Assembly: GCA_947482115.1 (NCBI GenBank) | Contig: CANKII010000001.1 | Span: 577,840-641,839, forward strand | DNA from: Fibrobacterota bacterium | GTDB lineage: Bacteria; Fibrobacterota; Fibrobacteria; UBA11236 | Length of the DNA: 64,000 bases | Direction: 5' to 3' | Part shown: one piece after another, positions 381 through 61,555 of the stretch | How positions within the stretch are numbered: the stretch's first letter is position 1 | Layout: each line of letters starts with the position of its first letter | The notes under the pieces: generated by a model | The model's input: only the letters and a program-made list of their open reading frames with translations | The model's database searches: none | Told to the model about the DNA's origin: nothing | Translations under genes and position numbers: made by a program

Positions 381-1915
381 GGCTTACTCCCCTTGGGAAG
401 GAGAACCCCGACTGTTGCTGCATCACGCAGGAAGTATTTGGCGCAAACCTTCTGGACCTGTTCCGCACTGACTTTTTGCACGGCCTCCGGAAAGGTGTTG
501 ATGTTTTCCCAGCCGCCGCGCATTTCCCAATACGCCAGTTGCGTGGCAAGATTGTCGAGATTTTCCACGGCACGAATGCTGTTCGCAACCACTTGATTGC
601 GAGCGCGCTGCAATTCCCGTTCAGAGATGGGATGTTTGGCCATGTCGTCCAGCACTTCCCACACGGCCTTTTCCACCTTGTCTATTGCAGGAGCGCCATC
701 CAAATCCGCGCTAACCTGAAAATTTGAGGTGTATTTGGTAACATCATTTCCGGCCGAAGCGGAGATCGCCAGCTTCAACTCTTTCACGAGTTTCTGATAC
801 AGGCGACCGCTCTTTCCGGAGAGAACGCCTTCCACGACATCCAACGCATACAAGTCCTCGTTGGGAAACCCGGGCGTGTGAAAAAGAATGTCGAGCCGCG
901 GACGCGCATCGGCGCGATGCACGGTCAAGCGCTTTTCCCCGGCCTGTGGCGGCTCCTGCGTCACCACGGGAGGGAATTCCTCCCCGCGAGGAATTCCGTT
1001 GAAATAGCGTTTGATCTGGCTCATGGCCCAAGCCGTGTCCACATCTCCGGCCAGCACCAGAATGGCATTGTTGGGCTTGTAGTAACGGCGATAGTGATCC
1101 TCTGCCTCGCGCTGGGTCAGATATTTGATGTCGGAGGGATAACCAATGGTGGGAAAACGATAGGGATGCGCTTCGTAAAAAATGCCCATCAGACTTTCCC
1201 AATAGCGACCGGTAGGGCTGTCCTCGACACGCATGCGCCGTTCTTCCATCACCACATCGTGTTCCGGATAGAATTCGCGCAACACGGCATTTTTCATGCG
1301 GTCCGATTCCAACCACAGATAAAGTTCAACTTTATTTTTAGGAAGCGTCACAAAATAAGCCGTCATGAGGTCTGACGTAAACGCATTCAATTCCGTACCG
1401 CCGGCGCGTTCATAAGCGCCCCAGAGTTCTTCTTTGATCATGATTTTGCGCTGTTCGGCCAACAGAGAATCATAGCGCGACTTCCAACCGGCAGCCTTGA
1501 CTGAATCTTCGCGCACGGCTTCAAGACTATCCATCACCTTTTCAATTTTGGCTTCGAGAATCTGATCGCGTTTCGGATCGCTCGTTCCAATAGTCTTTGT
1601 GCCCTTGAACAGCAAATGCTCCAGCATGTGCGCAATGCCCGTGTGACCCGGCGCTTCATGCACCGAACCGGTCACATAAAACAAACGGCAGGACACGATG
1701 GGTGCGGTATGACTGGGATAAATGATGACCTTGAGGCCATTGTCCAATTGGGTATAAGCGGGATGAATGCCTTCGGCAGATGAAAGGCCGACAAAAATTG
1801 TCAGGGCGAGGCACCCTTCGACTACGCTCAGGGACCGTGCCTCGCCCTGACGCGAACCGGCGTTACGCCGGTTCAGGAACAATCGGCGCAGGTTCTGCAG
1901 GTGCATTGACCACAT
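377..1915 (-). CDS. M16 (pitrilysin/insulinase) family zinc peptidase, secreted
   Basis: 512-aa ORF with the inverted zinc-binding motif HxxEH (GIAHMLEHLLFKGT) and a hydrophobic signal-like segment after a long N-region. The exact start is uncertain: the ORF overlaps the upstream helicase by ~50 nt and contains hairpin element G. Confidence 0.8.
   Translation of the reverse strand: MWSMHLQNLRRLFLNRRNAGSRQGEARSLSVVEGCLALTIFVGLSSAEGIHPAYTQLDNGLKVIIYPSHTAPIVSCRLFYVTGSVHEAPGHTGIAHMLEHLLFKGTKTIGTSDPKRDQILEAKIEKVMDSLEAVREDSVKAAGWKSRYDSLLAEQRKIMIKEELWGAYERAGGTELNAFTSDLMTAYFVTLPKNKVELYLWLESDRMKNAVLREFYPEHDVVMEERRMRVEDSPTGRYWESLMGIFYEAHPYRFPTIGYPSDIKYLTQREAEDHYRRYYKPNNAILVLAGDVDTAWAMSQIKRYFNGIPRGEEFPPVVTQEPPQAGEKRLTVHRADARPRLDILFHTPGFPNEDLYALDVVEGVLSGKSGRLYQKLVKELKLAISASAGNDVTKYTSNFQVSADLDGAPAIDKVEKAVWEVLDDMAKHPISERELQRARNQVVANSIRAVENLDNLATQLAYWEMRGGWENINTFPEAVQKVSAEQVQKVCAKYFLRDAATVGVLLPKGSKP
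1800..1851. repeat. Hairpin element, type-2 core copy G: perfect 15-bp inverted repeat (gtcagggcgaggcac / gtgcctcgccctgac) around a 22-nt loop ccttcgactacgctcagggacc
   Basis: Read directly. The arms are exact reverse complements. The loop is the reverse complement of GGTCCCTGAGCGTAGTCGAAGG, which matches the type-2 core at 31449 and 61528 and resembles the type-1 core. It lies between the helicase stop (1863) and the peptidase hydrophobic core, in frame in the annotated peptidase N-terminus (RQGEARSLSVVEGCLALT). Confidence 0.7.
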
Positions 1916-3602
1916 AATCTTTCCACTCTTTCACTTCGTACGAATAACCCTGTTCGATCAGGAACAATTGCCGGTTCATCCCGAACTCCTGCTCTTTAGT
2001 GTCACGCGTGACGAGGGTATAAAAATGCGCCTTGGCTCCATTGATCTTGGGACGCAACACGCGACCTAGTCGCTGGGCTTCTTCCTGACGGCTGCCGAAA
2101 GCACCGGAAATTTGAATCAGCACATTGGCATCGGGAATGTCGACTGCAAAATTTCCCACCTTGGACACGATCAGGATTTGGATGATGCCTTCACGGAATT
2201 CCTGATAGATCCGTTCGCGTTCCCCGTTGGGCGTGGAACCGGTAATCATGGGTACGCCCAGAATTTCCTGAATCAGATCCAACTGGTTCAGATATTGACC
2301 GATGATCAGAATCCGATCACCGGGATGGCGGCGAATCAATTCCTTCACCACCGGAATCTTGTCCGGATTGGTGGAAGCCAGTACGGTTTTGTTTCGCAAG
2401 TCCGCAAGAGCATAGGTCACGCGTTCGCTGCCGCGCAGCGGAACCCGAATCTCCGTACAAACCGCAGTGGCGATCCAGCCCTGCCCTTCCAGAATTCTCC
2501 ATGGCACTTCAAATTTTTTGGGGCCGATGAGAGAGAAGACTTCCTTCTGCTTTCCATCCTCGCGAATCAAAGTCGCGGTCAAACCCAAACGGCGCGTAGC
2601 CTGCATGTCCGCGGAGATGCGGAACACCGGCGCAGGCAAAAGATGAACCTCGTCATAAATGATAAGGCCCCAGGCATTTTGTTCGAAGATTCCGAAATGC
2701 GGGAACTCTTCAGTCTTGCGTTTGCGATAGGTCAGGATTTGATAGGTCGCCACGGTCACCGGAGCAATGGTCTTCGAATCTCCGGTGTATTCTGAAATTT
2801 GATCCGGCCGAATGGTCGTCTTGTCGAGAATTTCTCGAATCCATTGACGCGCAGCCGTCACATTGGTAGTCAACACCAAGGTATGGCAACGACAACGCGC
2901 CATCACGGCCATTCCGATCACGGTTTTTCCCGCACCGCAAGGCAGAACAATGACACCCGAACCGCCCTTTTCCGATCCACCTGCATAAAAAACCCGTCCA
3001 GCGGCTTCCTGATAATCACGCAGCTTCATCGGACTGCCGGACAGCATGGTGTCGCGCATGTCGATTTCCAACGGAGTGCCGGCTACATAACCCGCAATAT
3101 CTTCAGCAGGAAACCCAATCTGTGTGAGGGCAACTTTGATGGGACCGCGTGAATGCGGACGAAGCAATGCCCTGCCGTTGACCGGAGGACGCTCCACATA
3201 TACGGCAATTTCCCGAACCTTGCAAACTTCTTCCAACAATTCCGCATTTTCGGATTCGAGAATCAAACCTTCCGAGTCACGGCTCAAACGCAACTGGCCA
3301 TAACGCTCCATGAAGGTTTCGATTTCATATACGACATTCGCGGGCAGCGCATAACGCGAATACTGGCGTAACACGTCCAGCACTTCCTTGGAACTGTGGC
3401 CGGCCGAAGCGGCGTTCCAGAGGGAGAGATGCGAAACAGCGTAAGTATGAACGTGTTCGGGACTTTTAATCAATTCGGTGAAAGGCGCAATGGCATCGCG
3501 AACCGCATCATGCTGCGGATGTGCCGCCTCGAGGAGGAGGGTCATGTCCCCCTGTACAATCAAGGGTTTTTCCACCGATGGATCCAAGTCGATTGATTGC
3601 AA
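1863..3602 (-). CDS. XPB/ERCC3 (Ssl2/Rad25)-like SF2 DNA helicase
   Basis: 579 aa. Walker A (LPCGAGKT), DEVH box (IIYDEVHLL), RED motif (LIREDGK) and a C-terminal helicase domain. Overall architecture resembles archaeal/bacterial XPB homologues. Confidence 0.75.
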   Translation of the reverse strand: MQSIDLDPSVEKPLIVQGDMTLLLEAAHPQHDAVRDAIAPFTELIKSPEHVHTYAVSHLSLWNAASAGHSSKEVLDVLRQYSRYALPANVVYEIETFMERYGQLRLSRDSEGLILESENAELLEEVCKVREIAVYVERPPVNGRALLRPHSRGPIKVALTQIGFPAEDIAGYVAGTPLEIDMRDTMLSGSPMKLRDYQEAAGRVFYAGGSEKGGSGVIVLPCGAGKTVIGMAVMARCRCHTLVLTTNVTAARQWIREILDKTTIRPDQISEYTGDSKTIAPVTVATYQILTYRKRKTEEFPHFGIFEQNAWGLIIYDEVHLLPAPVFRISADMQATRRLGLTATLIREDGKQKEVFSLIGPKKFEVPWRILEGQGWIATAVCTEIRVPLRGSERVTYALADLRNKTVLASTNPDKIPVVKELIRRHPGDRILIIGQYLNQLDLIQEILGVPMITGSTPNGERERIYQEFREGIIQILIVSKVGNFAVDIPDANVLIQISGAFGSRQEEAQRLGRVLRPKINGAKAHFYTLVTRDTKEQEFGMNRQLFLIEQGYSYEVKEWKDYVVNAPAEPAPIVPEPA

Positions 3603-3634
3603 ATTAGGCCTCGGAAAAGGGGTAAATTTAACTC

Positions 3635-4525
3635 CTAAGAGGGCGTTAAAACGCCATTGTCTTGCTTGAAAAAAGCCTGCTGTCGCGCCAAATGCGCCTT
3701 TTCGAATTCCTGTGCATCTTTCAATTCCTCTTCGGTCAAAACACCGGGTTCACCCGTCACTTCCAGAGCGGCTAGCATGGCTTTTGCCATCTCCAAAAAA
3801 CCTTCTTCGAATCCATTCTCAGGCAACGCGCGAATCTCACTCAACGACATGGCATGGCTTCGCAAGGAATCGAGATAAGCGGCACGTTGTTCTTCGTTGA
3901 GGCGGAGAATTTCCACCAGTCTTTCATGGTCCGGAGTCAAAGGAATGGAGCCATGTTGGAGAAAAGCTTCACGGGTCCTGCGCTGCGCCGAACCCACCAC
4001 CTTCCGTTCACCAAAAGCCAGTTCCGCCCGCGATGTGGATGCAAAACACGGCAGGGTGGATTGTTGGGTTATGGATTTTTTTGTTGAGGCGGACAGTCGG
4101 GGTAGCGCGGTCCCTGAGCCTGTCGAAGGGTGCGCCCCGACAACCGATAGACCAAATCCATTCAATGCCGCTGCCAACGCCCATCCGATCCGCTCATGCG
4201 AAACCGCCAGCGTCGAACACCATGCAGCCTCATCGCGTCGGGCAATCAGGGAATAAGTCAACTCTTCGGCATGCAATACCGCGCGCCCACCGGTGGGTCG
4301 CAACACAAAATCCCAACCGCGTTCTTGCAAGGCCGCCCTATCAAATTCTTCCGAAGGTTTCTGGAAATAGCCAAGGCTCACACACCAGGGTTCCCAACCG
4401 TAAAATCGCACCGTTGGCGGAGAGCGCTTCTCTTCCACCGCTTTCAGAACGGCTGCATCCACCGCCATGTTGAATGCTCCGCGATGTTTACCCGTGAATA
4501 AAATGCGCCACGGTTTTGCGTTCAT
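3635..4525 (-). CDS. Lipoate-protein ligase / octanoyltransferase family protein (BPL/LPL catalytic domain)
   Basis: 296 aa. The N-terminus (FTGKHRGAFNMAVDAAVLKAVEE...RFYGWEPWCVSLGYFQ) is typical of the LplA/LipM family. It carries an in-frame copy of hairpin element A encoding HPSTGSGTALPRL. Confidence 0.65.
   Translation of the reverse strand: MNAKPWRILFTGKHRGAFNMAVDAAVLKAVEEKRSPPTVRFYGWEPWCVSLGYFQKPSEEFDRAALQERGWDFVLRPTGGRAVLHAEELTYSLIARRDEAAWCSTLAVSHERIGWALAAALNGFGLSVVGAHPSTGSGTALPRLSASTKKSITQQSTLPCFASTSRAELAFGERKVVGSAQRRTREAFLQHGSIPLTPDHERLVEILRLNEEQRAAYLDSLRSHAMSLSEIRALPENGFEEGFLEMAKAMLAALEVTGEPGVLTEEELKDAQEFEKAHLARQQAFFKQDNGVLTPS
4096..4141. repeat. Hairpin element, type-1 core copy A (GGTCCCTGAGCCTGTCGAAGGG at 4109..4130) with imperfect flanking inverted repeats (gtcggggtagcgcg / tgcgccccgac)
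   Basis: Read directly. It lies inside the lipoate ligase CDS, in frame. Confidence 0.7.
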
Positions 4526-5289
4526 TCAAGACCGCCACCATGGGATTCCAGCGCATCCCGCGCCCCGGCCTGCTCCGCAATTTTCTTGGAAGTTCCGTTT
4601 CCACGGCCCCATTCCTCACCGCGCACTTTCACCGATACGACAAAATTCTTGCGGTGTTCCGGCCCGGATTCATCCGCTACTTCGTAGGATGGAACACCAT
4701 AACCTTGCGATTGCGTGAACTCCAACAACAGGCTTTTATAATTGGCGAGATCGGCATCGGACAAAACATCGTCCATGATGCGCATCAAAGTGCTGTGAAT
4801 CATGCGGCGCACCGACTCATACCCACCGTCGAGATACACGGCGCCCAACACGGCTTCATAGGCATCCGCGAGTATGTTCAGCCGCTGTCGTCCACCCGCT
4901 TTTTCCTCCGACTTACTGAGTAGGATATACGCCCCCAAATCCCATTGCGCCGCACACAGCCCCAATACTTTCGCACTGACCACCAGCGATTTCATCTGGG
5001 ACAATTCGCCTTCCTCGCAATCGGGATGATGGCGGAACAAATAATCGGTGACAATGGAATTCAACACTGCATCGCCCAAAAATTCCAGCCGTTCATTGGA
5101 CGAAGGACGGCGGGAAGCCTTGATGTTATTCACCCAGGAACGGTGCGATAATGCTTTTTCGAGATGACGGGGATCAAAGAACGTATAGCCCAATACTTTT
5201 TCCAACTGGGTCAAACGTGCTTGCTTGGAGGCTTCGCTGCGCCGTGGCTTGAACAAGCGCCACAACGAAGCGAAGAAATTATGCGTCAA
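4522..5289 (-). CDS. rnc: Ribonuclease III
   Basis: RNase III signature ERLEFLGDAVLNSIV, a second catalytic region (EAVLGAVYLDGG) and a C-terminal dsRBD. Confidence 0.9.
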   Translation of the reverse strand: MTHNFFASLWRLFKPRRSEASKQARLTQLEKVLGYTFFDPRHLEKALSHRSWVNNIKASRRPSSNERLEFLGDAVLNSIVTDYLFRHHPDCEEGELSQMKSLVVSAKVLGLCAAQWDLGAYILLSKSEEKAGGRQRLNILADAYEAVLGAVYLDGGYESVRRMIHSTLMRIMDDVLSDADLANYKSLLLEFTQSQGYGVPSYEVADESGPEHRKNFVVSVKVRGEEWGRGNGTSKKIAEQAGARDALESHGGGLE

Positions 5290-5305
5290 CAGGGGAAAGA
5301 AAAAA

Positions 5306-5545
5306 TCAGGACTTGGATTTTACGTAAGCGATGACATCGCTCACCTTCTTGAGCTTCTCGGCTTCTTCGTCCGGAATCTCAATGTCAAACTCATCTTCGA
5401 GGGCCATGACCAGTTCGACCTGATCAAGGGAGTCCGCACCCAAGTCTTCGGCAAAGGCCGCTTCCGGCTTTACTTTGTCCTCGGTGACACCCAGTTTTTC
5501 GACGATCACCTTGGTGATTTTTGGCAGCAGTTCATCAGACATCAC
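5306..5545 (-). CDS. acpP: Acyl carrier protein
   Basis: 79 aa with the phosphopantetheine-attachment motif [16 protein letters not shown], located in the fab cluster. Confidence 0.9.
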
Positions 5546-5657
5546 TGTCTCCTTAAAAGTGGAATTGAAGGGACAAACCCCTTATTTGGCTTAATATAAC
5601 AACGGGGCCCATTTACTTCGCACCATTTTTGCCTTTTTTGCGCATTTCAATCCGGCC

Positions 5658-7312: not shown

Positions 7313-7332
7313 ATTTTACCTCCCGAGTTCTT

Positions 7333-13565: not shown

Positions 13566-13613
13566 GAATAGTGTACGAAATTAGACCCGGCCTGTAAGGG
13601 CGACCCGGCGGGT
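13566..13613. repeat. REP-like GC-rich palindrome (ccggcctgtaagggcgaccc-ggc-gggtcgcccttacaggccgg), copy 1
   Basis: Read directly: ~20-bp perfect arms with a 3-nt centre. It lies between the carB stop and the start of the TPR gene. It shares the core GGGCGACCCGGCGGGTCGCCC with the palindrome at 20497. Confidence 0.7.
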
Positions 13614-13618
13614 CGCCC

Positions 13619-16600
13619 TTACAGGCCGGCGTGAAATTCCTGCAAGGAGCGGACTTCGAGTTCCCCGCGTTTCAGGGCGCGAATGGCTTCCAATGCCGCA
13701 CGTGCCGCAGACATGGTTGTCGTATAAGGAATCTGGGCAATGAGCGCAGCTTTACGAATCAAACCATCGTCTTCAATCGCAGCTTGTCCCAAAGGCGTGT
13801 TGATCAGCAAAGCGCATTCCTTGCTCTGAATCAAATCCACGATATGCGGAGAACCTTCGGAAACCTTGTTCAAGGCGCGACAGGAAATGTCGTGTTCACG
13901 CAACACCTTCGCCGTGCCTGAAGTCGCAAGCAATTCAAAGCCGAGTTCCTGTAAACCCTGCGCAATCGGGACAATATTTTTCTTATCGTGATTATTCACG
14001 GAGAGAAATACCTTCCCGTGACTGGGAAGGCTGTTCCCCGCTGCGATTTGCGCCTTGGCAAAGGCTCGTGAAAAATTCGAATCGATGCCCATCACCTCGC
14101 CGGTGGATTTCATCTCGGGGCTTAGCAAGGTATCGACACCGTGGAATTTTGCAAACGGGAATACGCTTTCCTTCACCGTGACATAATTGCCGATGCGGGC
14201 CTCGGTGAATCCCAATTCCTGCAAAGTTTTCCCGAGCATGGCCTTGGTCGCCAACTTGGTCAAAGGAACACCGAGTGTTTTGCTGACGAAAGGAACCGTG
14301 CGGCTGCCGCGTGGATTCACTTCCAGCACATAAACCACATCGTCCTTAATGGCATACTGGACATTCATCAATCCAATCACCTTAAGCTCTTTGGCCATGG
14401 CGATGGTTTGGCGGCGCATTTCTTCCAGTACCGATTCGGTAATGTCCTGCGGCGGCATGATGCAGGCGGAATCTCCGGAGTGAATACCGGCTTCTTCAAT
14501 GTGCTGCATGATTCCCGCCACCACTACGGTTTTCCCGTCGGAGATGGCGTCCACATCCACTTCCATCGCTTGATCGAGGAACTTGTCCACAAGCACAGGC
14601 CGCTCAGAAGAAGCCTCGACTGCAGTGGCCATGTAATGACGCAACTCGTCTTCAGAATACACGATAGCCATCGCACGTCCGCCAAGCACAAAAGAAGGAC
14701 GCAGTAAGACGGGATAGGTCAACCGGGCTGCAACGGCAACCGCTTCTTCGGTGTTCACAGCCAAACCATTGGGCGGTTGCTTGAGACCCAAACGATTGAC
14801 CAGTTCGGAGAACAACTTGCGATCTTCCGCGATGTCGATGGAAGAAGGCGAGGTTCCCAAAATGGGCGCATGAGCGGCCTCCAAAGCTTTCGCCAACTTC
14901 AACGGCGTTTGTCCGCCGAATTGCAGAATGACACCGTAGGGTTTTTCCAACTCGATGATGTTGAGAATATCTTCACGAGTCAACGGTTCGAAATAAAGTT
15001 TGTCCGAGGTATCGTAATCCGTACTTACCGTTTCGGGATTGGAGTTCACCATGATGGATTCGCAATCCTCTTCCTGTAATGCAAAGGACGCCTGACAACA
15101 GGCATAGTCGAACTCGATACCCTGACCGATGCGGTTCGGGCCACCACCAACGATGATCACCTTCTTGCGATTCGTAGGAACCGATTCATTTTCTTCATCG
15201 TACGTCGAATAATGATAAGGCGTGAACGCCTTGAACTCGGCGGCGCAGGTGTCGACCGTCTTGTACACCGGCATGATATTCAGCGCCTTGCGCTGTTGAC
15301 GCACATCCTCTTCCTTGGAACCGGATAAGTACGCCAGTTGCACGTCGGAATAGCCCCATTGCTTCGCTTTCCGCAAAGTTTCTTTGGGTAAAGATTTGAG
15401 CGACTTGCCCTTCAAGTCCGACGCTTCGAAACGAACCAGATCGAGAATGTGATTCAGGAACCACGGATCCATGCGGCACATGCCCTGAACCTTTTCCAGA
15501 CTCCAGCCCAATTCAAAGGCGCGCTTCACGGAGAAAACACGGTTGATGCCGGGATGTTTGAAGTCGAGATTCTTTTCGATTTGATCGTCGGGAATTTCTT
15601 TTTTCCCGTCGGCGCCCAAACCGTAGCGGTCGATTTCCAGCGAGCGCATGGCTTTCTGCAGGGACTCTTTGAAAGTGCGACCGATGGCCATGGCCTCGCC
15701 CACCGACTTCATCTGCGTGCCCAGAACCGATTCCGCCTGCGCAAACTTCTCGAAGGTAAAACGCGGAACCTTGGTCACGACATAATCGATGGTCGGTTCA
15801 AAACAGGCAGGCGTGACGCGGGTGATGTCGTTCTTCAATTCATCCAGCGTATAGCCAACCGCAAGTTTGGCGGCGATTTTGGCAATGGGAAAACCAGTAG
15901 CCTTGGACGCCAATGCCGAACTGCGCGACACACGCGGATTCATCTCAATGATGATCAAGCGGCCGTCTTTGGGATTCACGGCGAATTGCACGTTGGAACC
16001 GCCGGTCTCCACTCCGATTTCACGGATGCAGGCGATGGAGGCATCGCGCATGCGCTGGTATTCCTTGTCCGTCAGCGTTTGCGCCGGAGCCACGGTGATG
16101 GAATCACCGGTGTGAATGCCCATGGCGTCCACGTTTTCAATGGAACAGATGATGACGACATTGTCCTTGCGGTCGCGCATCACTTCCATCTCGAATTCTT
16201 TCCATCCCACCATCGATTCCTCGACGAGGATTTCGGAAATCGGACTCAATGACAAACCACTGCGCGCAATGCGTTCAAATTCTTCTTCGGAGTATGCAAA
16301 GCCTCCGCCTGCTCCACCCATGGTGAAAGCCGGACGGATGACCAACGGCAAACCGATTTCCTTCATGGCGATGCGCGCTTCGTCCATGGTTCGGGCGACA
16401 AAAGACCGCGCTGAATCAATGCCAATTTTCGTCATCGCATCTTTGAACAACTTGCGCGACTCGGCTTTTTTGATGGCTTCCAGATTCGCGCCGATCATTT
16501 CGACGCCGTACTTTTCCAGAATGCCGCGTTCGGCCAGTTCGACGGCCGTGTTCAATCCCGTTTGTCCGCCCAAAGTGGGCAACAAGGCATCGGGTCTTTC

Positions 16601-17490: not shown

Positions 17491-18513
17491 TTATGGGGAA
17501 GTAAAAATGACCCCGTCATAACCCACCGCGACAAGTTTTCCGGTCCCTGAGCCTGTCGAAGGGCTTGTCCCCGCGACGGAATACAAGACGGATTTGGCAG
17601 CCAACGAATCGTTTGTCCAATGGACGCCATCATCTGAAACCAAAACCGTTCCTTCATAACCCACCGCAATAAATCGTCTGTTGTTCCACGTAATCGAGTT
17701 CAAGACGCCAAACGATCCCCGGGAAGCCCAGGTTACACCGTCCGGAGAAGCCAAAATATCTCCGTTGTTGCTTACAGCAACCAGTTGACTTCCACTCCAT
17801 GCGAGGGAGGAAAGGGCATTCGTGATGCCGGAACTTTGTTCCATCCACGTCACGCCATCTTGTGAAGTGAGAACCGTACCGTAGTAGCCCACTGCAATCA
17901 TCCGCGTTCCACTCCATGCCACGGAATACAAGTCTTCACCCCCTAAAACACCGTCACTTCCACCGTGAACCGGATCCTGCCGTCCCAATACCGGAAGCCG
18001 TTCGGTCCATGTAATTGCATCGGGAGATGTTAGTATGATCCCATCCCAGCCCACTGCCACAAAGAGTCCGGTCCCTGAGCCTGTCGAAGGGCCGGTCCAA
18101 ATAACCGAGTTTAAAATTGCCGATACTCCAGAATTCCGCTCTGTCCACACCACGCCATTCGGCGATGTTAAAACAATGCCGCCAGACCCCACAGCCACTA
18201 ACTGTCCGGGCCCTGAGCCTGTCGAAGGGCCTGTCCAAATCACAGAGTTCAAGGGATTTTCAGTTCCCGAAATTTGCTTTGTCCAGGTTGCTCCATCGGA
18301 CGACGTCAGAATAATTCCACTCGAACCGACGGCCACCCATTGATGATCCGCCCAAGTCACCGAATTCAATGCCTCGGTTGTTCCCGAGACCTGTTGTGTC
18401 CAAGACTTTCCCAAATTCACATTTTCATCATTGCCGGTCGAAGTCCTCATGCAATTCCAGAGAAACATCGGAATGATCAAAAAGGCTCCAATAAAAAGAT
18501 TCTTATTGCGCAT
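17491..18513 (-). CDS. Secreted BNR/Asp-box repeat protein (Ycf48-like beta-propeller)
   Basis: Signal peptide. Six or more S-x-D-G-x-T-W BNR motifs (TSSDGATWT, TSPNGVVWT, TSQDGVTWM, ASPDGVTWA, VSDDGVHWT). Three copies of PSTGSG(T/P)G are encoded by the hairpin-element core. Confidence 0.65.
   Translation of the reverse strand: MRNKNLFIGAFLIIPMFLWNCMRTSTGNDENVNLGKSWTQQVSGTTEALNSVTWADHQWVAVGSSGIILTSSDGATWTKQISGTENPLNSVIWTGPSTGSGPGQLVAVGSGGIVLTSPNGVVWTERNSGVSAILNSVIWTGPSTGSGTGLFVAVGWDGIILTSPDAITWTERLPVLGRQDPVHGGSDGVLGGEDLYSVAWSGTRMIAVGYYGTVLTSQDGVTWMEQSSGITNALSSLAWSGSQLVAVSNNGDILASPDGVTWASRGSFGVLNSITWNNRRFIAVGYEGTVLVSDDGVHWTNDSLAAKSVLYSVAGTSPSTGSGTGKLVAVGYDGVIFTSP
17542..17563. repeat. Hairpin element, type-1 core copy B (GGTCCCTGAGCCTGTCGAAGGG), flanked by gacaag/cttgtc
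   Basis: Read directly; inside the BNR gene, where it encodes PSTGSGT. Confidence 0.7.
18070..18091. repeat. Hairpin element, type-1 core copy C
   Basis: Read directly; inside the BNR gene (PSTGSGTG). Confidence 0.7.
18208..18229. repeat. Hairpin element, type-1 core copy D (GGGCCCTGAGCCTGTCGAAGGG)
   Basis: Read directly; inside the BNR gene, 141 bp from copy C (one protein-repeat period). Confidence 0.7.
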
Positions 18514-20494: not shown

Positions 20495-20496
20495 GG

Positions 20497-20535
20497 CCGG
20501 TAGGGGCGACCCGGCGGGTCGCCCCTACCGGCCCC
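20497..20535. repeat. REP-like GC-rich palindrome (ggccggtaggggcgaccc-ggc-gggtcgcccctaccggcc), copy 2
   Basis: Read directly: 18-bp perfect arms. It sits between the rplS stop and the recG start. It has the same core as the 13566 copy, with two compensatory arm differences. Confidence 0.75.
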
Positions 20536-23440: not shown

Positions 23441-23500
23441 ATCTGGGCAATAAAAAAGGCTGCGTGAGCAGCCTTTTTCTTCAAACATGAAATATCGGGA

Positions 23501-24049
23501 TTAAGCTTCGGGTGCGGCTTCCGCAGGAACTTCGGCAGCAGCAACCTTCGCGGCAGCTTCGGCTTCCTTCGCAGCGGCTTTGGCAGCTTCTTCAGCAACC
23601 TTTGCAGCAGCAGCTTCCTTGGCAGCTGTTTCAGCGGCGGCCTTCGCGGCAGCAGCTTCCTTGACGGCAGCTTCAGCAGCGTTCTTGGCAGCAGTTGCCT
23701 GCTCCGCCTTCACCACCTTGTGGATCTTGACCTTCTTGCTGAGAACAGCACGAGATTTGAGAGGAGCTTCGGCGGTTGCCTTGCCCTTCGCAATCAACTG
23801 TGCTTTTTCCATGATGCCGTGACGATGGAACAAGGACTTCACTGTGTCGCTCGGACGAGCGCCGTCTTTGATCCACTTCAAGGCGCTGGCCTCGTTCACC
23901 TTCACCGCAGGCGGGTTCAGGGTCGGATCATAGTGACCGATTTGTTCGAGAAATTTTCCCGTAGCCGCAGAGCGGGAATCCGCAACTGTGATGCGGTAAA
24001 AAGGCTTGTGAGTGTGGCCCATGCGAGCCAAGCGAATAACAACTGCCAA
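23501..24049 (-). CDS. rpsP: 30S ribosomal protein S16 with a long Ala/Lys/Glu-rich C-terminal tail
   Basis: The N-terminal ~90 aa are canonical S16 (MAVVIRLARMGHTHKPFYRI). The C-terminal ~80 aa are a low-complexity AAKEAAAAKA... tail. Confidence 0.85.
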   Translation of the reverse strand: MAVVIRLARMGHTHKPFYRITVADSRSAATGKFLEQIGHYDPTLNPPAVKVNEASALKWIKDGARPSDTVKSLFHRHGIMEKAQLIAKGKATAEAPLKSRAVLSKKVKIHKVVKAEQATAAKNAAEAAVKEAAAAKAAAETAAKEAAAAKVAEEAAKAAAKEAEAAAKVAAAEVPAEAAPEA

Positions 24050-30552: not shown

Positions 30553-30588
30553 CCCGCCGCGCTTCGACAGGCTCAGCGACCGGCGTGT
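30553..30588. repeat. Hairpin element, type-1 core copy F, reverse orientation, diverged (cgcttcgacaggctcagcgacc), flanked by cgccgcgc / gcgaccggcg
   Basis: Read directly; immediately 3' of the leuB stop, in a convergent intergenic region. Confidence 0.6.
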
Positions 30589-31448: not shown

Positions 31449-31474
31449 GCTGGCTGAGCGTAGTCGAAGCCAGC
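31449..31474. repeat. Hairpin element, type-2 core copy H (gctggc-TGAGCGTAGTCGAA-gccagc)
   Basis: Read directly: perfect 6-bp arms. It lies immediately after the carbamoyltransferase stop codon. Confidence 0.65.
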
Positions 31475-33252: not shown

Positions 33253-33492
33253 GTCAGACTTTTAAAAGGGACGAAGCCACGAGTCCCGATCCTTGGGCGC
33301 TGGCGGGACGTCCAGCCAATAAGAATCCGGGGGTATTGTTTTGGATTTATTCCCAAGCCGGTAAAAAATCGAGGAGAGACCAACCCCCAGAAAATAGGCC
33401 ACCGTAAACAGGATGAAATTGCTGACGATCTGAAAAGGCTTGAGGACAATGCGCAAACCCTTGTCGATTCGATGGAGGATATTGCGAACTGG

Positions 33493-33514
33493 CCCTTCGA
33501 CAGGCTCAGGGACC
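33493..33514. repeat. Hairpin element, type-1 core copy E, reverse orientation (cccttcgacaggctcagggacc)
   Basis: Read directly; in the 344-bp divergent intergenic region between the carbamoyltransferase and ilvE. It is followed by the 10-bp palindrome ctgaattcag. Confidence 0.7.
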
Positions 33515-33595
33515 ACTGAATTCAGCATACGTTCAATTTACATCCCGGAGGATTTTACTAGATAGGAATGTGAACACCCATCCCTGAGAAGATTT

Positions 33596-39419: not shown

Positions 39420-39441
39420 GGGAATTTGCATCTCCCTAAAA

Positions 39442-39474
39442 AAGCCCGCTCCGACCAGAGCGGGCTTTTTTATT
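39442..39474 (+). terminator. Intrinsic terminator (aagcccgctc-cgacca-gagcgggctt + TTTTTTATT) 52 nt upstream of the cimA ATG; attenuator terminator
   Basis: Read directly: 10-bp GC-rich stem followed by a T-tract. The upstream segment gagcgg (39407..39412) can alternatively pair with ccgctc (39446..39451), which would form an antiterminator. Confidence 0.55.
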
Positions 39475-56136: not shown

Positions 56137-56928
56137 ATGCCCAGCCGAAATCCCCCCATCGTCCTGTCCATTTCCGGTTCCGATCCCAGTGGCGGAGCGG
56201 GAATCGAGGCGGATCTCAAGACATTTCACCAACACGGTGTTTACGGCATGGCCATTCCCACCCTGTTGACCGCTCAAAATACAGTAGGTGTTCAGAACAT
56301 TCAATTTCTGAACCCGGATTTTCTGGAAGAACAATGGAATGCCATTTTTGCCGACCTGTGTCCCAACGCCATCAAGATTGGCGCATTGGGATCGCGTGAC
56401 ATGGTTTTGCGCATCGCCAAGCTGCTTTCCAAAAAAGAGGCCAAAGGAATTCCCATCGTGCTGGATCCGGTGATGGGCTCCACTTCGGGAATTCCCTTGC
56501 TGGAACCCAAAGCTGTTTCCATTTTAATCAATCACATCTTTCCTCTTTGCCGTGTGATTACACCGAACACACTCGAGTTTTCCAAACTGTGTGGAAAAGA
56601 AGTGACGGCGGACAAAGCAGCGGAATTGTTGAAAGTCTTTGGCAAAGACAAACCCTATGCCATTCTTCTTAAAGGCGGGCATTTCACAGGCTCACAAAGC
56701 ATCGACCTGCTTTGGAGTCAAAATCGCATAACTCCATTCAAAAGTTCGCGACTGAACTTGAACGCACATGGCACCGGCTGCGTGCTGGCCTCCTCCATTG
56801 CTGCAAACCTTGCTCTGGGCCAATCCATTCCGACGGCATGCCGCAATGCCAAAGCCTTTGTCCATGAAGCCCTGACCTCGGCTCCGAAATTGGGAAAAGG
56901 ACAAAGAGTCCTGAATTTATGGGTCTAG
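56137..56928 (+). CDS. thiD: Hydroxymethylpyrimidine / phosphomethylpyrimidine kinase
   Basis: VLSISGSDPSGGAGIEADLKTF is a canonical ThiD N-terminus; ribokinase-like fold. Confidence 0.85.
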   Translation: MPSRNPPIVLSISGSDPSGGAGIEADLKTFHQHGVYGMAIPTLLTAQNTVGVQNIQFLNPDFLEEQWNAIFADLCPNAIKIGALGSRDMVLRIAKLLSKKEAKGIPIVLDPVMGSTSGIPLLEPKAVSILINHIFPLCRVITPNTLEFSKLCGKEVTADKAAELLKVFGKDKPYAILLKGGHFTGSQSIDLLWSQNRITPFKSSRLNLNAHGTGCVLASSIAANLALGQSIPTACRNAKAFVHEALTSAPKLGKGQRVLNLWV

Positions 56929-56987
56929 AGCAGACTGTTAACACGTAGATTTGAGTCTGATTATTTTATTCCCGGTTCATCCAAGGT

Positions 56988-57581
56988 TTGCCCATGAACA
57001 CCCAAGACATCCTCAAGAAATTTTTCCCCAGTGGATTTGACACACTGACTGAAAAGGAAAAACGGGTCGTTCGGCATATCTCCGAAAAGAAGCAAATCAG
57101 CCGAAACACCAACCAGGATTTCTCCGGTGAACTGACCTTCGGACAAAGACTCGCGGATCGCGTCGCATCTTTCGGCGGCTCGTGGACTTTTATTCTTTTG
57201 TTTCTGGGAACCCTGCTTTGTTGGGTCGCGCTCAACACCTTCGTATTGGCCAGACACGATTCCCAATTCGACCCCTATCCCTACATTCTCCTGAATTTGA
57301 TTCTGTCCATGCTGGCCTCTTTGCAGGCCCCCGTGATCATGATGTCGCAAAACCGGCAGGCGGCCAAGGATCGGCTCGATGCGGCCCATGATTATGAAGT
57401 GAACCTGAAGGCCGAACTGGAAATCATGGGACTGCATGAAAAGATGGACGCCCTTCGTGAACGCCAGTGGCAGGAACTGATTTTGATGCAGCAAAAACAA
57501 ATCGAACTGCTTACCCAACTACTCGACGACAAAATGCAATCGGAACAGGGTTCCTCAAGAGGCTCTTCAGAGAATGCCTGA
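56988..57581 (+). CDS. DUF1003 family membrane protein
   Basis: 197 aa. Two TM helices followed by a coiled-coil tail. The QAPVIMMSQNRQAAKDR segment is typical of DUF1003. Confidence 0.55.
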   Translation: MPMNTQDILKKFFPSGFDTLTEKEKRVVRHISEKKQISRNTNQDFSGELTFGQRLADRVASFGGSWTFILLFLGTLLCWVALNTFVLARHDSQFDPYPYILLNLILSMLASLQAPVIMMSQNRQAAKDRLDAAHDYEVNLKAELEIMGLHEKMDALRERQWQELILMQQKQIELLTQLLDDKMQSEQGSSRGSSENA

Positions 57582-58512
57582 AACGGAACAAAACCCTTCG
57601 GGGGATTTCGCTCCACGTATTGCCGGCTATTTCGGCGTTCTGATCATTCTCGGATTCGCAATCTGGTTTGCAACCCTTCTCATCCATGAAGCCTACCGCT
57701 ACGACCGCATCCTTCGGGTTCAATTTCCGGAATTGGGAACCTTGATTGTCGAAGATCCCGTGGTTCGAAACGGAGTTCCGATCGGCCGCGTCAAAAGCCT
57801 CACCCTCCAAAACGGACAGGCTTTGGCTGAACTGGAATTATTCCATCGCGATTTCATTCCGGCTGATTCCCGTTTCATCAACTTCAACCATTCCCTCATG
57901 GGCGCGCGAATGGTGGTGCTCCTGCCCGGAAGTTCAAAAAACCCCCTCGACGAAGCGACTATTCAAACGGGATTTTTCGCCGATGGCGTGGCGGAATCTC
58001 TCCGTCGCGTAAATGATCTTCTTGCGACTGTCGCGACCATCCGCGCTCAAATCGACCAACTCACCAGCGGTCCCAATGCCGCCATCTCCCCCGCCCTGTT
58101 GAACCACTTGAACGACAATGCCCTGCAATTAAATAGGCTGGCTTTGAAAGTGGACCAAGGTGGAAAATCCCTCCGGGCGGGGCTGGAAAGCTGGGTTCAT
58201 GCGGAGTACGCTTTGCAAAAAGGATTGACAACCGTTCATTCCGGCATGGACTCCTCGGAAAAGCAAATCACCACCTTTCTGAACTCTGCAAACGCCGCCG
58301 AACAACAGGTGGACATGCTCTTGAGTTCCGCAGAAAAACTTCTTGTGGGCGTTCAGGATTCCACCGGCATAACCCATTCCCTGCTGAACGATCCCAAGGT
58401 GTATGACAACATCAAGACATCGTTGGTCGTTCTTGACAGCGCCCTGCGCATCCTTCAGGGAGATGGTTTGCATCATGTGGTAGGCTGGAAAAACATCCAC
58501 TTCTTCAAATGA
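57574..58512 (+). CDS. MCE/MlaD-domain membrane-anchored protein
   Basis: N-terminal TM anchor, an MCE-like beta-barrel region (TLIVEDPVVRNGVPIGRVKSL) and a helical C-terminus. It overlaps the upstream gene by 8 nt. Confidence 0.5.
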   Translation: MPETEQNPSGDFAPRIAGYFGVLIILGFAIWFATLLIHEAYRYDRILRVQFPELGTLIVEDPVVRNGVPIGRVKSLTLQNGQALAELELFHRDFIPADSRFINFNHSLMGARMVVLLPGSSKNPLDEATIQTGFFADGVAESLRRVNDLLATVATIRAQIDQLTSGPNAAISPALLNHLNDNALQLNRLALKVDQGGKSLRAGLESWVHAEYALQKGLTTVHSGMDSSEKQITTFLNSANAAEQQVDMLLSSAEKLLVGVQDSTGITHSLLNDPKVYDNIKTSLVVLDSALRILQGDGLHHVVGWKNIHFFK

Positions 58513-58516
58513 TCCC

Positions 58517-59545
58517 ATGCTAAAGTCTTTATCCAGCCTTGTTTTCATCGCACTGTGCGTTCTGACCTGCAGTCCGTCCTCTTCCATCACATCCCCGTTT
58601 CAAAATCCCGCGCAGGGAGATACGGATTATGCGATCCAAGGCGAATACCTTGGAACCAATGTCGCCACGGGATTGGCGATGGGCGCTCAGGTGATGGCTC
58701 AGGGACAGGGAACCTTTGCGCTTTTACTGCTCGATGGTGGATTACCTGGGCAGGGTTGGAATGGAAACGGAAGAAAAAGCTTTTCGGGAAACCGGCAGGG
58801 AAATTCGGCAATCTTTGTCCAAAGCAGCTTCAATCTATCCGTTGGAGTTACGGGTGATTCCCTGACAGGAACCAATGAGTTGGGACAGACTTTACGACTC
58901 GTCAAAGTTCACCGCCAAAGTCCCACGTTAAATCAGACGCCGCCTGCCGAAGCCACCGTACTTTTTGACGGAACCTCCGTCGCCGCATGGGCCGACGCCG
59001 TGCTGGATTCCAATCACATCATGTTTGTCAACATCGGTTCCAGTGGAGCCACGACATTGCAGTCGTTTACCGACTTCACTTTGCATCTGGAATTTCGTCT
59101 GCCCTTCGAACCGGACGCATCAGGACAGGGACGCGGGAATAGCGGCATCTATTTGCAAAAGCGGTATGAGTTGCAGATTCTCGACAGCTTCGGTCAAAGT
59201 CTGCCCTACCTGTTTGCCGCAGATACGATTGAACCCAAGCGCCAATGCGGAGCGTTCTATGAACAAAGCGCACCGCTGGTCAACATGGCCTTTCCTCCTT
59301 TGACCTGGCAAACCTACGACATCCAGTTCACGTCGGCGCGATGGGATTCCACGGGACACAAAATTCAAAATGCCAAGGTCACCGTTCAACAGAACGGAGT
59401 GGTGATCCATCAGGATCGTATCCTGTCAAATTCCACATTGGCAGGCAGCCCGGAATCTTCCAGTCCAAGTCCGCATCTTTTGCAATACCACGGCCATGAA
59501 ATTGCATTCCGGAACATCTGGATTACTAGGTTTTCCCCACCATGA
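58517..59545 (+). CDS. Secreted DUF1080 (3-keto-disaccharide hydrolase-like / LamG-like jellyroll) protein
   Basis: Signal peptide. The GNSGIYLQKRYELQILDSFG core is typical of DUF1080, as is the C-terminal ...EIAFRNIWI. Confidence 0.6.
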   Translation: MLKSLSSLVFIALCVLTCSPSSSITSPFQNPAQGDTDYAIQGEYLGTNVATGLAMGAQVMAQGQGTFALLLLDGGLPGQGWNGNGRKSFSGNRQGNSAIFVQSSFNLSVGVTGDSLTGTNELGQTLRLVKVHRQSPTLNQTPPAEATVLFDGTSVAAWADAVLDSNHIMFVNIGSSGATTLQSFTDFTLHLEFRLPFEPDASGQGRGNSGIYLQKRYELQILDSFGQSLPYLFAADTIEPKRQCGAFYEQSAPLVNMAFPPLTWQTYDIQFTSARWDSTGHKIQNAKVTVQQNGVVIHQDRILSNSTLAGSPESSSPSPHLLQYHGHEIAFRNIWITRFSPP

Positions 59546-60012
59546 CGGAAACCCTGCAAGAGGACATTCGTAAAATCCTGGATCGCCAGGGAACCATGGA
59601 CCCGACTTTCAATTCCATCGCCTGTAAAATTGTTGAAGAGTTCGACGCCAAAATCGGTGTCATTTATACTCTCGACGCGGGCACAGGCATGTTGAAACTC
59701 CGCTGTCATTGCGGGATCGAAAAGGAAGCCGCCGGGAAACTTCGCTTCCTGTGCATGGGCAAGGACATTCCCGGCCAGGTCGCCGCCACACGGAAAGCCA
59801 TTCAAGGCTGCCATCAAAGCGAATCCGGAGTGAAATCTTCCGGTCCCGAGTTTGAAGTCTTTACGGCAGGAACGCTTTTCGTCCCCATGCTCCATGAAAA
59901 CGCCATGATGGGAGTGCTCGGCATCGGCAAGGGGTTTCACCGTGAATACGCCCCCGATGAAATCGCCTCCCTCACCTCAATCGCCCATCTCATCGCCGCT
60001 TATCTGAAATAA
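59542..60012 (+). CDS. GAF-domain protein
   Basis: 156 aa. GAF-like pattern (VIYTLDAGTGMLKLR...AMMGVLGIG...APDEIASLTSIAHLIAAYL). Its start overlaps the upstream stop. Confidence 0.55.
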   Translation: MTETLQEDIRKILDRQGTMDPTFNSIACKIVEEFDAKIGVIYTLDAGTGMLKLRCHCGIEKEAAGKLRFLCMGKDIPGQVAATRKAIQGCHQSESGVKSSGPEFEVFTAGTLFVPMLHENAMMGVLGIGKGFHREYAPDEIASLTSIAHLIAAYLK

Positions 60013-60027
60013 AGTGAAATAGCCGCC

Positions 60028-61491
60028 ATGTTCTCCTTGTGGGATTGGATTGTGGTCGCCGTTTATTTCGCTGCCATGGCTGGCATCGGCGCGTACTTCT
60101 CCAGAAAAAACCGCAACTTCAAAGATTTCATGTTTGGCGGCGGCAACATGCCGTGGTTTGCCGTGGGTATTTCCCTCATCGCCACCTCCGTCAGCGCCAA
60201 TACCTTCCTGGGCAATCCCGCCGACTCATATGCCAACGACATGCGGCTGTTGATGTTGAATTTCGGTTCCCTCGCCGCCATCGTCATAGTGGGAACTTTT
60301 TTCATTCCCCGCTATCGTGCCAGTGGAATCAAATCCGCCTACGAGCTTTTGGAAATCCGGTTTTCAAAACCCGTGCGAACACTCGCAGCCTCGCTTTATT
60401 CCTGTCATTTACTATTACGGATGGGAATGCTGATTTATGCTCCTTCGCTGGTGCTGATGAAAATCACCGGAGTTCCCTTCTGGGCGGCGGCTATCAGCAT
60501 GGGGCTCTTCGCCATGCTCTACACTTCGCTCGGTGGAATTAAAGCCGCGACCACCACAGACATCATCCAATTCTGCATCTTCTTCGGCGGCGGACTACTG
60601 TGCATTTATTTCTGTGCCAAGGGTGTGGGTTCTTTCGGAAAGACATGGGAACTGGCTCAAGCTGCAGGGAAAACACGCTGGTTGGATTTCACTTTTAATC
60701 CTGCAAGTGAACGGAATTTTTTCTCCGCGGCCATCGTGTACATCGTTTTCGAAGTCGCCATTCGGGGTTGCGATCAACAATTCGTACAGCGATACCTTTC
60801 CACCAAAAGCGTGCGCACGGCGAATTACTCCTCCATCACCTCTTCCCTATTGGGAATTTGTGTGGGCATCGTATTCTTTACGGTCGGCGCATTTCTCTAT
60901 GTGTATTTCCAAGTGGCGCATGTCGAAGCATTGCCGGTCACCAAAGTCAACGAGGTCCTCCCATATTTCATCATCCACGTTTTGCCACCGGGGGTGAAAG
61001 GCTTACTCGTTGCGGCTATCATGGCGGCGGACATGGGCGCTTTGAGCTCCGTATTAACCGCTTTGTCCAACACCACCGTTGTAGACTTGCTGCCACGCAC
61101 TCCCGGTGATGGCGAAATCAATCTCAGGAACGCCCGCAAGTGGGTTTTACTTTGGGGATTGCTGGGAATGGCCGCTTCGTTCGTTTGCGCCCTGGGAAAT
61201 ATCTCCATCCTATCCAAAGCATTGTTTTTCACATCACTGTTCAGTGGCCCATTACTCGGATTATTCTTGATGGCCTTCTTCCGGCCCAAACTTCATCCTA
61301 CCGCAGTCATTGTCGCAACCTTCGGCGGCATGGCCGTGCTGATGTTGTTTCTAAAAATCCCGGTATTGCCCGCAGGTTTGTGGAAACCTGTCTACGAAGT
61401 CTCATGGCCGTGGAATCCGTTGATTTCCATGACGGCGTCAATCACGATGGCACATGTGTTGAATTTGTTTTTTCGAAATCGACCCCGCTGA
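60028..61491 (+). CDS. Sodium:solute symporter (SSS family)
   Basis: 487 aa. 13-14 TM helices, an N-terminal SSF signature (GGGNMPWFAVGISLIATSVSANTFLG) and a GxxxG-rich core. Confidence 0.8.
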   Translation: MFSLWDWIVVAVYFAAMAGIGAYFSRKNRNFKDFMFGGGNMPWFAVGISLIATSVSANTFLGNPADSYANDMRLLMLNFGSLAAIVIVGTFFIPRYRASGIKSAYELLEIRFSKPVRTLAASLYSCHLLLRMGMLIYAPSLVLMKITGVPFWAAAISMGLFAMLYTSLGGIKAATTTDIIQFCIFFGGGLLCIYFCAKGVGSFGKTWELAQAAGKTRWLDFTFNPASERNFFSAAIVYIVFEVAIRGCDQQFVQRYLSTKSVRTANYSSITSSLLGICVGIVFFTVGAFLYVYFQVAHVEALPVTKVNEVLPYFIIHVLPPGVKGLLVAAIMAADMGALSSVLTALSNTTVVDLLPRTPGDGEINLRNARKWVLLWGLLGMAASFVCALGNISILSKALFFTSLFSGPLLGLFLMAFFRPKLHPTAVIVATFGGMAVLMLFLKIPVLPAGLWKPVYEVSWPWNPLISMTASITMAHVLNLFFRNRPR

Positions 61492-61515
61492 CTTCGACTC
61501 CGCTCAGTCAGCGGG
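61483..61515 (+). terminator. Hairpin overlapping the SSS-gene stop (ccccgctgact - tcgactccgctc - agtcagcggg)
   Basis: Read directly: 10-bp perfect arms in a convergent intergenic region. Followed by the T-containing ctgtttccc. Confidence 0.4.
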
Positions 61516-61527
61516 ACACTGTTTCCC

Positions 61528-61555
61528 GATCGTTGAGCGTAGTCGAAACGACCGG
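61528..61555. repeat. Hairpin element, type-2 core copy I (cgatcgt-TGAGCGTAGTCGAA-acgaccg)
   Basis: Read directly: arms complementary with one mismatch. It lies between the convergent SSS and DUF445 genes. Confidence 0.6.

Follow-up and report, generated by a model that had tools for sequence, protein, structure and literature searches.

In a 64,000-nt stretch of contig CANKII010000001.1 from a Fibrobacterota bacterium (hereafter the window), we find ten copies of a dispersed hairpin repeat whose unit, or module, measures only 21-23 nt. We show that this lineage has acquired the unit at new sites, namely five coding sites and the tip of one repetitive extragenic palindromic (REP) hairpin, and we consider it fairly probable that the module is a non-autonomous, REP-like miniature mobile DNA hairpin. 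A sequence-only reading of the window had drawn attention to a dispersed hairpin family in both genic and intergenic sites, which proves genuine. Its list of nine loci had to be amended, as the true total is ten, with one copy mis-described and one missed.

A chance origin for this family is excluded. The core CTGAGC-N3/4-TCGAAG has nine exact matches in the window against 0.05 expected, and none of 100 shuffles reaches nine. The ninth match is an unlisted copy at 61492-61507 on the reverse strand, with GGAG in its middle, while the copy at 61535 (+), previously given as an exact member of the second (GTAG) type, in fact reads TTGAGCGTAGTCGAAA, in which a compensatory change has replaced the closing C-G pair by T-A. 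The 22-mer GGTCCCTGAGCCTGTCGAAGGG has six window matches with at most two mismatches, against 0 expected. A covariance model derived from unrelated copies, searched without filters, recovers exactly ten window copies at E <= 0.03, the next match having E ~ 1. The same genome has an eleventh copy 6.8 kb to the right of the window, within the gene for prolyl-tRNA synthetase. Half of the ten window copies are in coding sequence and half are intergenic; in the count for stop codons, five of six intergenic copies lie within about 30 nt of one. The hairpins noted earlier beside the stop codons of leuB, the carbamoyltransferase gene and the SSS-transporter gene are indeed there (1 nt after, 2 nt after and overlapping the stop, respectively), and the XPB-helicase stop has one as well, 12 nt after. 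Copies 2-5 (coding), copy 7 and the prolyl-tRNA synthetase copy are antisense to their host or adjacent gene.

The unit consists of an unpaired 5' tag, a 3-bp stem, the invariant apical part TGAGC-(CTG/GTAG/GGAG)-TCGAA, and the complementary 3 bp. The triplets directly flanking the core in the window are ccc/ggg, cgc/gcg, ggc/gcc, gac/gtc, and cgt/acg. We examined the stem in 111 distinct copies (alignment A4), of which 105 come from other loci and were chosen without regard to their flanks, the other six being the window copies with a 3-nt middle. The three core-adjacent pairs show standard pairing in about 89% of these sequences, with 28, 47, and 30 double (compensatory) changes, and none of 500 shuffles matches the observed pairing or covariation. 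When the partner is slid by one to three columns as a control, pairing falls from 77% to 37-58%. The next three positions outward are only about 50% paired, and the family helix is therefore 3 bp long. The covariation that had been suggested as a check is thus strong at these three pairs.

The 5' tag is conserved and unpaired, with the profile C-G-(G/T/C)-T. It is GGT in the window, preceded in part by C, and GTT, GCT or TGT elsewhere; window copies carry CGGTC, and some copies elsewhere CGTC or TGTC. The 3' flank shows no conservation beyond position +3 and there is no conserved 3' tail. Across the family the middle is CTG in 227 copies, TTG in 107, CCG in 22, TCG in 14, GTAG in 9, GAAG in 8, and GGAG in 7. 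Nearest-neighbour folding models the apical 13-14 nt as an open loop of 11-12 nt. Judging from its sequence, this "loop" can probably close on itself through a T-A pair, tandem sheared G.A/A.G pairs, and a G-C pair, leaving a loop of 5-6 nt. The G.A pairs are possible on one strand only, since the complement is unable to form them. The sequence-only reading, which described a conserved loop on an idiosyncratic stem, was right about the apical conservation and the changing stem, while the open loop is doubtful given the probable self-closing. Long idiosyncratic stems are not a family trait, because only 3 bp belong to the unit and the long arms are host sequence. Nor is the design the reverse of that of a REP: because of the conserved unpaired 5' tag, we liken it to a REP or to the end of an IS200/IS605 insertion sequence (IS).

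The five coding copies in the window are exact 21-nt (7-aa), in-frame, lineage-specific insertions in real genes, and the in-frame cores recorded at 4114 (LplA-type ligase), 17547, 18075, and 18213 (beta-propeller repeat protein), and 33495 (88-aa membrane protein) are all confirmed. The LplA-type ligase (3635-4525, reverse strand; Pfam assignment) reads ...VVGAH-PSTGSGT-ALPRL... in a hypervariable loop, and its closest orthologue, P0002 (82% identity), keeps VVGAH and is exactly 7 residues shorter at the module (alignment A1). In the propeller-like protein, blades with PSTGSG(T/P) are 46 aa long and blades without it 39 aa. The nearest orthologue, P0121 (57% identity, with the same unusual middle segment), has none of the three 7-codon blocks, and a codon alignment with it gives clean 21-nt gaps at the three module sites; the coding insertions show no target duplication. 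The 88-aa membrane open reading frame (ORF) upstream of the carbamoyltransferase gene reads MLNSV-VPEPVEG-PVRN..., and its orthologues in three related loci (L249, L250, and L251) have 82-83 aa and miss exactly these 7 residues. As the nearest orthologues are without the 7 residues, the family survives the objection, raised along with the original observation, that its copies might simply be conserved protein motifs.

The prolyl-tRNA synthetase copy outside the window is again translated as PSTGSG. Five of the six coding copies, this one included, thus share a strand and frame that yield the Gly/Ser/Thr/Pro linker PSTGSG, and variants with a 4-nt middle (22 nt) are never inside genes, a pattern expected from selection on random insertions. 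The prolyl-tRNA synthetase site (L252, 20766-20830) appears to hold a module inside an outer copy that has decayed (ttgcttgccc-core-ggg-TCGAGGG), an arrangement matched in an unrelated genome (L225), and the insert there may be longer than 7 aa.

We also observe other sequences in the same loop of the LplA-type ligase. Orthologues P0004, P0007, and P0040 (alignment A1, columns ~140-180; L244, 8540-8640) carry VGAIHELPLR or VGAIRESPQ there, which look like a translated REP-type palindrome, GGGGCGATTCG...CGAATCGCCCC. This hypervariable loop appears to have taken in different hairpin repeats independently in different lineages.

The sixth new site is the tip of a REP hairpin. Copy 1 stands at the junction of the XPB-helicase and M16-peptidase genes, where its arms (1800-1851) form a perfect 15+15-bp palindrome that has no loop of its own and whose sequence, GTCAGGGCGA..., resembles the two intact GTAG-type REPs of the window (GGTAGGGGCGACCC-GGC-GGGTCGCCCCTACC). 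At the same junction, the REP-like hairpin of locus L245 (GGGCGGACG-GC-CGTCCGCCC) is plain and lacks the module, and the apex of a REP-like palindrome in L244 (CATAGGGGCGATTCG...CGAATTGCCTCTATG) is occupied by a module that bears GGAG and lies in the opposite orientation to that in the window. Since REP-like hairpins of this junction occur with and without it, the module sits inside a host hairpin. Likewise, one hairpin "arm" of the LplA copy encodes the conserved VVGAH, which is kept in the module-free orthologue. The inverted repeats listed in the sequence-only reading were all found, including the perfect 15-bp pair at 1800/1837. Among 441 copies of the family, perfect flanking runs of at least 6 bp were observed 11 times against 2.9 expected, and with an enrichment this weak variable long stems are no property of the family; flanking inverted repeats do exceed expectation, but not as a general feature.

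Two side observations concern these host hairpins. The intact GTAG-tagged REPs, at 13587-13629 and 20495-20533, are of the classical kind, with perfect stems of 20 bp and 18 bp and a GGC loop (e.g. GGCCGGTAGGGGCGACCC-GGC-GGGTCGCCCCTACCGGCC); one overlaps the carbamoyl-phosphate synthase stop codon and the other lies between RecG and the next gene. This second, conventional REP family implies a REP-associated tyrosine transposase (RAYT) elsewhere in the genome. In addition, the M16-peptidase ORF (window 377-1915, reverse strand; L121, 12554-14092) is called upstream through the hairpin repeat, giving an N-terminus with ...SRQGEARSLSVVEGCLALTIF... that overlaps the XPB-helicase gene, whereas the orthologous proteins begin with a signal-peptide-like sequence some 30 residues further on. 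A start-codon misannotation caused by the repeat is likely here.

The module also enters or adjoins copies of itself. In other genomes we observe 17 cases of nesting, in which the guest has entered before or after the loop triplet of its host, tandem arrays with periods of 21 nt (L115) and 23 nt (L225), and head-to-head pairs, including dimers in Sphingobium. Symmetric partial duplications are seen as well, e.g. CCCTGAGC-CCTGAGC...TCGAAGGG-TCGAAGGG. A locus from a viral-contig collection (L083, 5400-5800) has three tandem units of 70 nt, each of which is a head-to-head module pair, and these units partially match the Rfam family RF02901 AaHKsRNA41 (33 bits, E = 4.7e-6, against a gathering score of 97). 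In the window, copies 9 and 10 make up an inverted doublet (61484-61553) between the convergent SSS and DUF445 genes.

The exact pattern GGTCCCTGAGC-N3/4-TCGAAGGG occurs in at least 120 stretches from at least eight phyla. Its hosts include Bacteroidota, Actinomycetota (Microbacterium, Plantibacter), Spirochaetota (Treponema), Fibrobacter succinogenes, Chloroflexota, Pseudomonadota, Binatia, Thermodesulfobacteriota, Lachnospiraceae, and Cyanobacteriota. The module is present on plasmids or chromids of sphingomonads, Microbacterium, Comamonas, Variovorax, and Dolichospermum (one copy on a plasmid of the last), where it is never beneath an annotated feature. Neither 5,426 E. coli genomes nor the genomes of cultured phages yielded a match, and we therefore read the matches in the viral-contig collection as probably host or prophage-flank DNA.

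Table 1 Copies of the hairpin module in the window, with the nucleotides in the middle of the apical part, structural features, and genomic context.
Copy	Position (strand)	Middle	Features	Context and reading
1	1800-1851 (-)	GTAG	core 1817-1830; 22-nt module is the exact centre of the perfect 15+15-bp palindrome GTCAGGGCGAGGCAC/GTGCCTCGCCCTGAC; DNA fold -20.6 kcal/mol, z = -5.8	12 nt past XPB-helicase stop; T-run follows
2	4096-4140 (+)	CTG	22-mer 4109-4130	inside LplA-type lipoate ligase gene (3635-4525, -), antisense; PSTGSGT in hypervariable surface loop
3	17530-17569 (+)	CTG	22-mer 17542-17563	last blade of 340-aa beta-propeller-like repeat protein (17491-18513, -); PSTGSGT
4	18070-18091 (+)	CTG		another blade of the same protein; PSTGSGT
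5	18208-18229 (+)	CTG	tag GGG, not GGT	blade adjacent to that of copy 4; PSTGSGP
6	30553-30586 (-)	CTG	inner stem cgc/gcg, a compensatory variant of ccc/ggg; outer arm cgccg/cggcg	begins 1 nt past leuB stop; gap flanked by leuB and TfoX_N, which converge
7	31449-31474 (+)	GTAG	stem gctggc/gccagc	2 nt past carbamoyltransferase stop (gene on -, hence antisense); before small DUF5989-type gene
8	33493-33514 (-)	CTG		N-terminus of 88-aa membrane-protein ORF (33262-33528, -), sense; VPEPVEG
9	61484-61515 (-)	GGAG	10-bp stem cccgctgact/agtcagcggg (C-G and T-A closing pairs counted); z = -4.1	overlaps SSS-transporter stop codon; absent from the sequence-only list
10	61528-61553 (+)	GTAG	closing pair T-A for C-G; stem cgatcgt/acgaccg	

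We hypothesize that the unit would be copied as folded single-stranded DNA and mobilised in trans by an enzyme reading the 5' tag and the irregular apical part. The logic of such an enzyme would be that of HUH/Y1 transposases (RAYT/TnpA-REP and the TnpA of IS200/IS605), which read REPs and IS ends. Indeed, TnpA-REP recognises folded single-stranded REPs through a 5' tetranucleotide and loop or mismatch features, REP units as short as 23 nt exist, and IS200/IS605 transposases likewise contact loops or mismatches and use a 5' tetranucleotide (PMC8266576). Exposed spots such as hairpin tips would be preferred targets because they are single-stranded. Selection would then sieve the copies, so that in genes only the 21-nt versions in a harmless frame survive, and some gene-end copies, just past stop codons, would since have been kept by selection. 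If the module is REP-like mobile DNA, there is perhaps an even chance that a HUH-type enzyme moves it.

The sequence-only reading had left two options, a structured motif recognised through its loop or the footprint of a miniature mobile element. The mixed orientations, the five coding insertions, and the inversion of the module between relatives at the XPB/M16 site lead us to favour a miniature mobile DNA element over an RNA motif. A larger element is unlikely to have left the unit as its footprint, given that the halves of the unit do not form a pair of terminal inverted repeats. It is also possible, and we propose it only tentatively, that the family is a pan-bacterial, self-contained mobile module of 21-23 nt that inserts at exposed single-stranded spots (REP tips, its own loop, tolerant protein loops) and is moved by a horizontally travelling HUH-type enzyme or by a near-universal host activity. 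A mobiliser that is not lineage-specific would account for the same 22-mer from Bacteroidales of 40% GC to Actinomycetota of 70% GC.

Several observations weigh against a REP-like mobile element. We found no transposase or RAYT-like gene adjacent to a copy, within the window, or among about 240 loci that bear the element, so the mobilising enzyme is purely inferred. A motif search for RAYT/IS200 signatures gave 0 matches, Pfam showed housekeeping genes only in element-dense loci, and, for the 43 window ORFs, the 25 families listed of the 81 matched include housekeeping families. All-against-all clustering of 9,158 ORFs from the ~240 loci revealed no recurrent neighbour family, and the co-occurring recognition protein that had been suggested as a thing to look for does not emerge from it. 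The same sequence is present in phyla of 40% GC and of 70% GC, whereas RAYT-REP pairs are normally lineage-specific; this identity across phyla fits a vertically inherited domesticated transposase poorly. Neither a target-site duplication nor a fixed target sequence is definable. No gain or loss is seen between near-identical strains, as contigs from other samples (99.9-100% identical) share the same copies and the search for presence/absence polymorphism, also proposed earlier, found none variable. The three propeller insertions could stem from one event that was spread by conversion between blades. Finally, copy 7 is identical at 26 of 26 nt, at the same site and in the same orientation, in L250 and L251 (carbamoyltransferase 78% identical in amino acids), where the surrounding intergenic bases differ, and a decayed version occupies the site in L249. 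This indicates that at least some copies act as functional elements rather than parasites, and copy 7 is probably retained in these relatives as an RNA 3'-end or intercistronic hairpin.

The strongest alternative, which we hold to be rather unlikely, is a functional structured RNA (or single-stranded DNA) motif whose apical part is read by a widely conserved protein, e.g. in the definition or protection of mRNA 3' ends, and whose copies selection keeps, with no spread by transposition. The closeness of five of six intergenic copies to stop codons and the identity of copy 7 despite differing flanks are consistent with such a role, as is the related head-to-head pair that underlies the RNA-seq-derived family AaHKsRNA41 (a partial match below the gathering score); REPs are themselves thought to work as RNA elements (PMC3733652). 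Nevertheless, the orientation to transcription is mixed, with five window copies and the prolyl-tRNA synthetase copy antisense, and the XPB/M16 site holds the module in opposite orientations even though its complement cannot make the G.A pairs. Moreover, five copies are recent insertions in coding sequence, only one copy has a T-run and none passes a terminator scan, there is no Rfam match, and the nested and tandem copies have no obvious RNA rationale.

We regard as quite unlikely an origin without any dedicated enzyme, by template switching during replication or gene conversion between hairpins (quasi-palindrome correction), which would also grow the complementary arms. The perfect palindrome without its own loop around copy 1 would suit this process, as would the symmetric partial duplications and the LplA site, where the first arm is the conserved VVGAH and the complementary arm falls in a loop free of constraint, the net length having changed by no more than the 21 nt. 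It leaves unexplained, however, how an identical 22-mer first arrived in unrelated phyla and how clean 21-nt insertions arose in coding sequence where the orthologue has no palindrome, and extended flank complementarity is enriched only weakly.

Very unlikely, in our view, is that a larger transposon left these 21-22 nt on excision, as a footprint made of its terminal nucleotides and a duplicated target. The small constant size and the clean coding insertions agree with such a footprint, but the halves GGTCCCTGAGC and TCGAAGGG match as inverted copies over 3 bp only, a full-length element with these ends was not seen in ~2 Mb of loci, the middle varies (CTG, TTG, CCG, GTAG, GAAG) while the halves are fixed, and tandem and nested units would be unexpected. 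To a conserved protein motif or chance oligomer we give practically no credence: although four window copies and the prolyl-tRNA synthetase copy read PSTGSG in real proteins, these residues are missing from orthologues, half of the ten copies lie between genes, one coding copy is read from another strand and in another frame (VPEPVEG), and no shuffle equals the observed count.

Other candidate structures were set aside. An intrinsic terminator, which would be a G+C-rich hairpin of small loop with a T/U-run behind it, does not fit, as only copy 1 has a T-run and the terminator scan calls no element hairpin; neither does a miniature inverted-repeat transposable element, which would have 15-30 bp of terminal inverted repeat and a target-site duplication, with only 3 bp complementary within the unit and no duplication seen at the coding insertions. 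The hammerhead core, k-turn, lambda boxB, SRP and sarcin-ricin loops, attC, and dif/Xer sites were dropped for lack of fit, as were the rolling-circle replication nick site or IS91 target CTTG, the DnaG CTG priming signal, and the -35 promoter box.

Small palindromic repeats are an element type that is already known, from REPs, the small dispersed repeats (SDRs) of Nostocaceae, and Rickettsia palindromic elements (RPEs), including in-frame intragenic copies and REPs inside palindromes. What sets this family apart is that it is tiny and modular, conserves the apical structure instead of the stem, crosses phyla, and is absent from Rfam and the searchable literature. The earlier impression that this is not a described element seems to hold: at the gathering score Rfam has 0 matches in the window, with only chance-level ones at E <= 10, and a full-text literature search with the DNA core and the translated peptides returned unrelated primers only.

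The closest Rfam entry, RF02901 AaHKsRNA41 (Aggregatibacter sRNA 41), has CUGAgCUUGcCGAAG ... gUUCGgCAAGcUCAg in its consensus, a head-to-head pair of a near-identical module, which suggests that what this "sRNA" represents is a repeat dimer that is transcribed. The window copies do not match the sRNA model, which is species-specific and 187 nt long. The SDRs of Nostocaceae, described by Elhai et al. in 2008 (Genome Res 18:1484), are reportedly hairpin units of 21-27 nt, mobile as judged from filled and empty orthologous sites, arranged in tandem, and inserted into a palindrome (HIP1). By this description, they resemble our module, with its 21-nt insertions absent from orthologues and its tandem period of 21-23 nt, whereas they are described in Nostocaceae only and the module is pan-bacterial. 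RPEs are about 100-150 bp long, are confined to Rickettsia, and add tens of residues, unlike the module, which adds exactly 7. They share with it the placement of palindromic repeats in frame in functional protein genes, in surface loops (PMC3733652).

With GTAG REPs and bacterial interspersed mosaic elements (BIMEs), associated with RAYTs, the module shares a hairpin unit of 20-40 nt, an unpaired 5' tag, and a high copy number. PMC3733652 adds further likenesses, namely the occurrence as singles, head-to-head pairs, and clusters, the position just downstream of ORFs, often between convergent genes, and occasional in-frame intragenic copies; it documents intragenic REP insertions of 7-9 aa and REPs within other palindromes. 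Like a REP, the module is a short palindromic unit (10 copies in 64 kb) that lies extragenically downstream of ORFs and forms dimers. It differs in its tag (GGT/GTT, not GTAG or GTRG), in conserving the apical part with only 3 stem bp free to vary, and in being common to many phyla, whereas REPs are lineage-specific; moreover, no RAYT is found near its copies.

The CGTC REP superfamily (Di Nocera et al. 2013, PMC3733652) has a terminal CGTC (TGTC/CCTC) tag, to which the unpaired, C-G-x-T-C-like 5' tag of many module copies, e.g. cCGTCatccTGAGC...ggat, may correspond. According to the same text, CGTC REPs have no known dedicated transposase, form head-to-head dimers, have intragenic copies, and live in similar hosts (sphingomonads, Bacteroidetes, Spirochaetes). 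As defined there, they have stems of 8-9 bp beginning with A-T/T-A, loops of 4-5 nt, and a CCA tail, which the window copies (stem CCC/CGC/GGC) and the Sphingobium copies (CCGTTCGCCC-core-GGGC) do not fit, and the peptides encoded by CGTC-1/-3/-4, VIPAKAGI, VIAGLDPAIH, and VIPWLDHGI, are unrelated to PSTGSG and VPEPVEG. By these textual definitions and encoded peptides, we set the module apart from the GTAG and CGTC-1/-3/-4 REP families.

The window contains further repeats and hairpins. Bidirectional terminator-like hairpins with A- and T-runs at 23453-23478 and 39437-39472 (aaaaaggctgc-GTGA-gcagccttttt and taaaaaagcccgctc-CGACCA-gagcgggctttttta) are unrelated to the repeat family. A GCAGC-rich 42-nt tandem repeat (2.7 copies, 74% matches) at 23583-23694 lies inside the ORF at 23501-24049 on the reverse strand, which presumably encodes an Ala/Lys-rich repeat protein.

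If the module is indeed mobile, it would be among the smallest mobile DNA known, self-contained in 21-23 nt. Confirmation would establish a cross-phylum family of ultra-short mobile hairpins that decorates gene ends, invades other repeats, and leaves 7-residue inserts in essential enzymes (lipoate ligase and, just outside the window, prolyl-tRNA synthetase). Such a family would also lead gene callers to mis-extend ORFs and seed spurious "hypothetical proteins", and in practice it could help to mask annotations and to mark insertions that are recent and lineage-specific. It would further offer a clean system for studying how REP-like DNA spreads without an evident transposase, a question that Di Nocera et al. 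pose for CGTC repeats.

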